In this document: positions 17,617-18,689 of the stretch, piece after piece
Numbering within the stretch: the first letter of the stretch is position 1
How the letters are laid out: each line of letters opens with the position of its first letter
Assembly: GCF_024502345.1 (NCBI RefSeq)
Contig: NZ_JALDNN010000001.1
Origin: Escherichia coli
Lineage (GTDB): Bacteria > Pseudomonadota > Gammaproteobacteria > Enterobacterales > Enterobacteriaceae
DNA: 64,000 nt
Reading direction: 5' to 3' (one strand)
Program-made: the position numbers and the translations under genes
Notes under the pieces: generated by a model
Seen by the model: only the letters and a program-made list of their open reading frames with translations
Told to the model about the DNA's origin: nothing
Databases searched by the model: none

Positions 17617-18012
17617 TCAGAAGGTTTCCCAGTTCTCGCTGGCGTGTTGTTCCGTTTCACGAACGGACTTTACCGCTTTAACCTTACTCTGCGGGCTGGT
17701 GTTGCTGATTGTCGGTACTATGGTATTTTTTCGTTCAGCATCGCGTTTTTTATTATCACGGAGACGAAATACGCTCACCTTCTCCTGCAGAATCCGTGAC
17801 TGATTCTGCAACGAAGCGGCAGTGGCTGCAGACTGTTCCACCAGAGCTGCATTTTGTTGGGTGGTGCTGTCTATCTGGCCCACGGCGCTGTTAATCTGGG
17901 CAATACCATCTCCCTGCTCACGACTGGCCTTGGCTATTTCGTCAATCAGCCCTTCCATGCTCTGGACGTTACTGATGATATCCTCCATTCCCCTGTCTGC
18001 TTTTTCAACCAG
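17617..18012 (-). pseudogene. methyl-accepting chemotaxis protein, C-terminal fragment (signalling domain + NWETF tail)
   Basis: ...[74 protein letters not shown]...ENWETF. Homology begins exactly at the truncated IS1 boundary; the N-terminal part of the track ORF is IS1 antisense. Confidence 0.6.
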
Positions 18013-18689
18013 GGTACTGACGGGGTGGTGCGTAACGGCAAAAGCACTGCCGGACATCAGCGCTATCTCTGCTCTCACTGCCGTAAAACATGGCAACTGC
18101 AGTTCACTTACACCGCTTCTCAACCCGGTACGCACCAGAAAATCATTGATATGGCCATGAATGGCGTTGGATGCCGGGCAACCGCCCGCATTATGGGCGT
18201 TGGCCTCAACACGATTTTCCGCCATTTAAAAAACTCAGGCCGCAGTCGGTAACCTCGCGCATACAGCCGGGCAGTGACGTCATCGTCTGCGCGGAAATGG
18301 ACGAACAGTGGGGATACGTCGGGGCTAAATCGCGCCAGCGCTGGCTGTTTTACGCGTATGACAGGCTCCGGAAGACGGTTGTTGCGCACGTCTTCGGTGA
18401 ACGCACTCTGGCCACACTGGAGCGTCTTCTGAGCCTGCTGTCGGCCTTTGAGGTCGTGGTATGGATGACGGATGGCTGGCCGCTGTATGAATCACGCCTG
18501 AAGGGAAAGCTGCACGTTATCAGCAAGCGTTACACTCAGCGCATTGAGCGACATAATCTGAATCTGAGACAATATCTGGCAAGGCTGGGACGGAAGTCAC
18601 TGTCGTTCTCAAAATCGGTGGAGCTGCATGACAAGGTCATCGGGCATTATCTGAACATAAAACACTATCAGTAAGTTGGAGTCATTACC
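18013..18689 (+). mobile_element. IS1, 5'-truncated (lacks about 90 bp including left IR and insA start); insA' 18013-18252, insB 18171-18674
   Basis: InsA C-terminus [77 protein letters not shown]; InsB ORF; right terminus ...gttggagtcattacc at 18689. Confidence 0.8.

Follow-up and report, generated by a model that had tools for sequence, protein, structure and literature searches.

The locus at 17617-18689 of the window (the whole 64-kb stretch of Escherichia coli DNA analyzed here) is very probably the non-functional scar of one deletion-type illegitimate recombination in an IS-rich island. The 3' end of an accessory Tsr-like chemoreceptor gene (hereafter, MCP gene) is joined directly to an IS1 that has lost its left end. 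Both partners are truncated, the junction is exact and no filler nucleotide lies between them. The features of the locus and its surroundings are as follows, with window coordinates and strand.

15651-16871, − strand: intact 1221-bp IS30, whose left flank is a different IS3-family (IS911-like) orfA remnant
16872-17216, − strand: N-terminal remnant of an IS3-family orfA, cut by IS30, matching transpos_IS3 positions 1-82 and collinear with the canonical island
17200-17517, − strand: 105-aa ORF (ORF105) for a hypothetical protein (e.g., WP_016243822.1), which travels with the MCP gene
17540-17565, − strand: terminator-like hairpin about 50 nt 3' of the MCP stop and kept with the remnant (consensus scan only)
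17617-18014, − strand: 3' remnant of the accessory Tsr-like MCP gene, nt 1286-1683 of 1683 (codons 429-560 plus stop)
18015-18017, no strand: junction TAC, equal to MCP nt 1283-1285 (− strand) and to IS1 nt 94-96, with no filler nucleotides
18018-18689, + strand: 5'-truncated IS1, nt 97-768, 100% identical to the intact IS1 of ECONIH4 and G3/10
18782-20044, − strand: P4-type tyrosine integrase gene (int); the IS1 right end lies 92 bp past the int stop, as in G3/10 and ECONIH4
20241-20290, − strand: 50-bp att repeat of the 3' end of tRNA-Phe, 100% identical to 39805-39854

From the left, the window carries mmuPM-tauABCD-hemB-IS5-autotransporter, the IS911-like orfA remnant, IS30 and the IS3-family orfA remnant; these are followed by ORF105, the MCP stump, the truncated IS1, the integrase and the att repeat, and on the right by a type I restriction-modification island of ~19.5 kb, tRNA-Phe (39806-39881) and yqgA-speC-nupG. 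The nearby mosaic of an IS911-like remnant, an intact IS30 and a second IS3-family remnant supports the suggestion of deletion scars made by an earlier sequence-only reading of this DNA. The second orfA remnant, whose outer end (about 17216) was placed by eye, borders the MCP module on its left side. ORF105 had no Pfam or NCBIfam family match, and accompanies the chromosomal copies of MCP as well as those in the plasmid records of pEc4097 and CH468.

A three-way alignment of the window with the intact MCP gene and the intact IS1 defined the junction. At its core, the MCP gene reads ...CCAGGGTAC and then GGCCGG, IS1 reads ...TTCAGCTAC and then TGACGG, and the window reads CCAGGGTACTGACGG; in a second rendering these are ...TTCAACCAGGGTAC and then GGCCGG, ...CCTGTTCAGCTAC and then TGACGG, and ...TTCAACCAGGGTACTGACGG, respectively. 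The sequence is MCP-only up to 18014 and IS1-only from 18018, with TAC common to both, so the claim that homology to the MCP signalling domain and NWETF tail stops exactly where IS1 starts holds to the nucleotide. The partners are identical at 8 of the 11 positions around TAC, and the shared bases with zero inserted ones qualify as microhomology. Microhomology of at least 3 bp arises by chance at ~5% of random junctions, and the 3-bp TAC is weakly suggestive of a non-random join.

The exact junction was present in 0 of 5,426 complete E. coli genomes, and a 34-nt query spanning it had no match among GTDB species-representative genomes or metagenome contigs. The best record for the junction region (93% coverage) was the plasmid pEc4097, on which the two halves are separate and differently arranged. 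Among all sequences searched, the breakpoint pair thus appears to be private to the genome of the window. We found no account of this locus in the literature. An Rfam scan of 14000-21200 detected nothing at the junction; its sole match, at 140 bits (gathering score, 39), was a full-length isrC (RF01387) at 17025-17147 (− strand), located within the IS3-family orfA remnant, in its 5' part. What the isrC model recognizes here may be the transposase leader/orfA of an IS3-family element and not a separate sRNA gene.

The chemoreceptor remnant comprises the final 24% of the gene, and retains the end of the C-terminal helix of the signalling domain, the second methylation helix, the linker and the NWETF tail. 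The translation of 17617-18015 (− strand) is TLVEKADRG...SENWETF followed by a stop, and that of 17617-18030 (− strand) ends in ...QHASENWETF and the same stop. An intact counterpart is the 560-aa MCP of the E. coli plasmid pEc4097 (WP_082261904.1), to which 131 of 132 residues are identical; used as a tblastn query, its residues 429-560 corresponded to window positions 18015-17620 (99.2% identity, E = 1e-79), and the two genes differ by 1 mismatch in the 401 nt that they have in common. The remnant shares 99.5% nucleotide identity with the chromosomal MCP copy of ABWA45, and the window, including the MCP part, shares 99.5% over 824 nt with the chromosomal copies. This near-identity of the DNA to an intact annotated gene over the kept part identifies an MCP pseudogene.

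Little of what makes a receptor is left in the stump. Pfam MCPsignal aligned over profile positions 119-171 of 172 (the last 53) only, and its 30 bits fall below the gathering cut-off of 34.6 bits. A HAMP domain had no Pfam match in the remnant, and the transmembrane segments, the periplasmic 4HB_MCP_1 domain and a complete signalling domain with its hairpin tip are missing as well, while the NWETF pentapeptide, the CheR/CheB docking site of the major chemoreceptors, is present. Neither the 5' part of the MCP gene nor a second MCP copy was detected by tblastn in the 64-kb window. Judging from what is known of the chemoreceptor family, a stump with no promoter, start codon, sensor, membrane segments, HAMP or CheA/CheW-binding hairpin should be incapable of signalling. 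The hairpin behind its stop comes from a terminator-type consensus scan in which site counts were not above those of shuffles.

The intact 560-aa homologue has the architecture of Tsr, i.e., a four-helix-bundle periplasmic sensor (4HB_MCP_1, residues 5-171), HAMP (208-254), the MCP signalling domain (MCPsignal, 327-478) and a C-terminal NWETF. Its best match among solved structures is E. coli Tsr (6s1k, E = 2e-84), over residues 180-559 only, whereas its sensor (residues 1-179) was left unaligned in the structure-database sequence search. The remnant aligns to the last ~120 positions only of the NCBIfam models for Tsr, Tar and Tcp, and is identical to Tsr at only 53 of 132 positions. The intact homologue scored 327, 326, 319 and 296 bits against the Tsr, Tar, Tcp and Tap models, respectively, and reached none of their equivalog cut-offs (947, 900, 900 and 903 bits). 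Orthology to Tsr, Tar, Trg, Tap or Tcp was rejected, since the scores were far under every NCBIfam equivalog cut-off, and the gene is therefore a Tsr-like paralogue. It also differs from Tsr in being a rare accessory gene that is carried on plasmids of Citrobacter, Klebsiella, Enterobacter and Serratia as well.

The IS1 half of the locus is equally incomplete. With the intact 768-bp IS1 as a blastn query, nt 94-768 matched 18015-18689 of the window. IS1 nt 1-93 are missing, and the loss amounts to 93-96 nt when the shared TAC is counted; it took the left inverted repeat, the first 55 nt, together with any promoter within them, and the first 13 codons of insA, which starts at nt 56. The sequence-only reading had noted that IS1 lacks its first ~90 bp and that neither partner is intact, and alignment to IS1 (675/675 nt identical) and to the full-length MCP (131/132 aa) confirmed both truncations, with codons 429-560 only of MCP and nt 94-768 only of IS1 remaining. 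A complete IS1 left end elsewhere would have spoken against this view, but the left inverted repeat was found nowhere in the 64-kb window with up to 3 mismatches allowed, and blastn detected no second IS1 copy there.

Compared with a functional IS1 (768 bp, with insA and insAB' expressed by −1 frameshifting), the fragment still carries the remainder of insA together with insB', and both the A6C frameshift site at 18228-18234 and the right inverted repeat at 18667-18689 are preserved. The Pfam domains HTH_Tnp_IS1 and DDE_Tnp_IS1 are matched in full, and Zn_ribbon_InsA from profile position 7 of 35. A transposable unit needs both terminal inverted repeats of ~23 bp and a complete insA plus insB' joined through the A6C −1 frameshift; only the right repeat is present here, and insA has lost its start and 13 codons, so that the fragment differs from IS1 in being dead. 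Based on knowledge of the IS1 family, a stump that lacks one end, the promoter and the first cysteine pair of the InsA zinc ribbon should be unable to transpose, whether or not transposase is provided in trans. Its ~670 bp still offer other IS1 copies a stretch of homology for recombination.

The intact IS1 at the same place in relatives (5908-6675 of L002, from ECONIH4; 26249-27016 of L004, from G3/10) is flanked by ...GCTGTTCG on the left and CGGAGTAAC... on the right, and shows no target-site duplication. Its site was therefore already a rearrangement junction before the truncation in the lineage of the window.

Two chance reading frames run across the junction, one of 202 aa (17617-18225, − strand) and one of 132 aa (17854-18252, + strand). 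The former starts antisense inside IS1 and continues in frame into the MCP stump, and the fusion might accordingly be regarded as a functional chimeric gene that yields a soluble, NWETF-tailed fragment able to bind CheR and CheB. Such a gene would draw on an uninterrupted frame over the junction and on the presence of both the pentapeptide and the second methylation helix. We nevertheless consider it very improbable: the sole upstream promoter-like site on the same strand is a 9/12 match inside IS1, in a region (17100-18800) where 3 such sites were counted against 1.7 ± 1.2 expected from shuffles, i.e., no excess; the ATG of the 202-aa ORF is preceded by no convincing ribosome-binding site; int, the only upstream gene on the same strand, has a strong hairpin after it (18750-18780); the first 68 residues of the ORF product are read antisense from IS1 and match no family; and the junction is conserved nowhere in the searched sequences. 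It is just as doubtful that the ORF is expressed and that its soluble product titrates CheR and CheB, leaving less of both for the receptors of the cell, which, if true, would alter chemotactic adaptation. Neither of the chimeric ORFs should be annotated as a gene.

Comparison with related genomes indicated how the scar may have arisen. An intact IS1 with the same right flank and the same distance to the integrase was found in G3/10, ECONIH4, 2273-PO3, 0H15-0H26 and others; in total, G3/10, ECONIH4 and at least 12 other genomes have an intact IS1 at the identical right flank beside the same integrase. IS1 was therefore complete before the event, and the 100% identity of its remainder to these intact copies implies that the event was recent. 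XJ5.2 and 2017.17.01CC match the window from IS1 through pheV, but their IS1 lies in other contexts, making them uninformative. No genome covered more than 48% of the window region 9000-24500.

A canonical pheV island with an intact MCP gene is represented by strain 2021CK-01361, with the order pheV-int-IS1-autotransporter fragment-IS3-...-IS30-orfA remnant-ORF105-MCP-IS66-IS26-...-yghJ-glcAB. In this layout, both sides retained in the window sit on the same side of their breakpoints, and the window is therefore not its simple deletion derivative. On the model of G3/10, a simple deletion would fit only in the rearranged hemB-pheV layout, after an earlier inversion.

From the autotransporter to window position 16411, inside IS30, G3/10 and the window do not differ (100% identity); there G3/10 passes into an exact IS66 terminus (GTAAGCG...). 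This IS66 copy has the orientation of the IS66 within the MCP gene of ABWA45, with 99.6% identity between the two, and the intact IS1 follows ~10.2 kb past the IS66 terminus. Insertion of IS66 into IS30 is a less likely origin of this G3/10 junction than a deletion, because the missing half of IS30 is absent after IS66 (L004 16107-18300) and because the IS66 matches that of the ABWA45 MCP copy in both sequence and orientation.

The most economical reading of these comparisons, in our view, is a common ancestor with two later losses. Such an ancestor would have had the order hemB-autotransporter-IS30-orfA remnant-ORF105-MCP(::IS66)-...-IS1-int-pheV. In the lineage of the window, a single illegitimate recombination at the 3-bp TAC would have linked MCP to the nearby IS1 just past the 3' end of int, removing MCP nt 1-1282, IS1 nt 1-93 and all DNA between them as an in-situ deletion of roughly 11 kb. 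G3/10 would have lost MCP separately and independently, by a deletion that, unlike that of the window, stops exactly at the IS66 terminus GTAAGCG. A genome combining the hemB side, a full IS30 and a full MCP gene was not found among sequenced genomes.

Several other origins of the junction were weighed against this in-situ deletion. The IS1 transposase could be thought to have made a classical adjacent deletion, as IS1 is known to do, and the intact copy of G3/10 and ECONIH4, being without a target-site duplication, was involved in earlier rearrangements. Transposase-mediated adjacent deletions, however, stop exactly at an end of the IS, which itself stays complete, and at this junction neither is the case: the breakpoint falls 93-96 nt into IS1, which has lost its left inverted repeat. 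This internal breakpoint rules out an adjacent deletion by the transposase, which we hold to be practically inconceivable, and therefore points to illegitimate recombination. An artefact of assembly or of chimeric reads over a multicopy IS would be in keeping with the highly repeated nature of IS1 in E. coli (median of 11 matching places per genome) and with the finding of the exact junction in no other sequence searched. We judge this to be most unlikely, since repeat collapse links two copies of a repeat and not the interior of IS1 to unique DNA with a 3-bp overlap, and both flanks are otherwise collinear with real genomes.

A less remote, though still unlikely, origin is that the junction marks an end of an inverted or translocated segment, or the edge of an imported fragment. 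In the imported version, which shares this low probability, a plasmid-type IS30-remnant-ORF105-MCP fragment would have entered by homology in IS30 and illegitimately at TAC (homology-facilitated illegitimate recombination). Consistent with either version, the window has an inversion-type geometry relative to the canonical island, and no other sequence was found in which a full IS30 separates the hemB-side flank from the MCP module; the CH468 plasmid record contains the IS30-remnant-ORF105-MCP module and pEc4097 its remnant-ORF105-MCP part, and strains 0H15-0H26, which are close to the window, have MCP on a 304-kb plasmid only. On the other hand, more events are needed, no reciprocal junction (with the IS1 left end or the MCP 5' part) was present within the 64 kb, and G3/10 has the hemB-IS30 junction yet retains an intact IS1 and an IS66 oriented as if beside MCP.

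The surroundings of the locus bear further rearrangements. IS30 has on its left a different orfA remnant from that on its right, and its site is therefore a second rearrangement junction. The two IS3-family orfA remnants face each other across IS30 (flanks 15639-15650 and 16872-16883), are 67% identical and are both truncated at the same codon; the sequences on either side of IS30 form a perfect palindrome (AAAAAAGGCTAC / GTAGCCTTTTTT), and a flanking direct repeat is absent. The site looks like the product of recombination between two IS30 copies at one IS3-family hot spot, or of an IS30-mediated inversion. To the left, an IS5-like (ISKpn26-type) transposase gene (10298-11278, − strand) lies between hemB and the gene of a 1016-aa autotransporter (11486-14536), an arrangement that is the same in G3/10.

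On a larger scale, window positions 1-14536 are joined to 18015-44581, placing mmuPM-tauABCD-hemB-autotransporter within a few kb of the pheV island. The hemB-side and pheV regions are presumably far apart on the K-12 map, which implies a large chromosomal rearrangement. The same juxtaposition was seen in G3/10, and in ECONIH4 the same left side joins pheU.

The att repeat separates the integrase island from a second island of ~19.5 kb (20291-39805) inserted at pheV, between the integrase and this tRNA gene. As the second island is delimited by the 50-bp direct repeat, the two are tandem islands at one tRNA. The cargo of the second includes hsdR (21128-24244), hsdS (24361-25569) and hsdM (25566-27122), assigned from ORF size and order relative to the annotated copy of G3/10, which has a related island at pheU instead. 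An ORF at 20568-20912 (− strand) contains 5.9 copies of a 48-bp tandem repeat (20611-20891), encoding 16-aa repeats (KDDRLRTIATFDGKTL); a G3/10 gene at the matching place, between int and hsdR, is annotated as a "5-fold beta-flower protein".

Across genomes, the MCP gene is a rare, mobile and IS-flanked accessory gene. It was detected in 16 of the 5,426 complete E. coli genomes, in 7 places on chromosomes and 11 on plasmids, and in 34 plasmid records, mostly of Citrobacter, followed by Escherichia, Klebsiella, Enterobacter and Serratia. It has been damaged independently in several lineages: IS66 is inserted at MCP nt 165/166 in ABWA45 (L001 7935/7936), CAVP773 retains just the 5' 97 nt, next to IS3 (L011 9001-9097), the gene is wholly lost in G3/10 with the breakpoint at the IS66 terminus inside IS30 (L004 16106/16107), and several plasmid copies are truncated. 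The window adds one more case of a plasmid-borne accessory chemoreceptor gene eroded in various ways in IS-rich pheV islands. It has little significance beyond annotation, in which 17617-18017 should be labeled as an MCP pseudogene fragment and 18015-18689 as a partial IS1, although the lineage of the strain could be recognized by the private junction.

The locus is thus a real but ordinary scar, of a kind already known. Like other IS deletion scars in the pheV and pheU islands of E. coli, it lies by a P4-type integrase next to tRNA-Phe among dense IS fragments, in tandem islands with a 50-bp att repeat between them, and its cargo gene was lost independently in relatives. It differs from them in that its breakpoint pair is private among the sequences searched and in that its endpoint lies within an IS rather than at a terminus.
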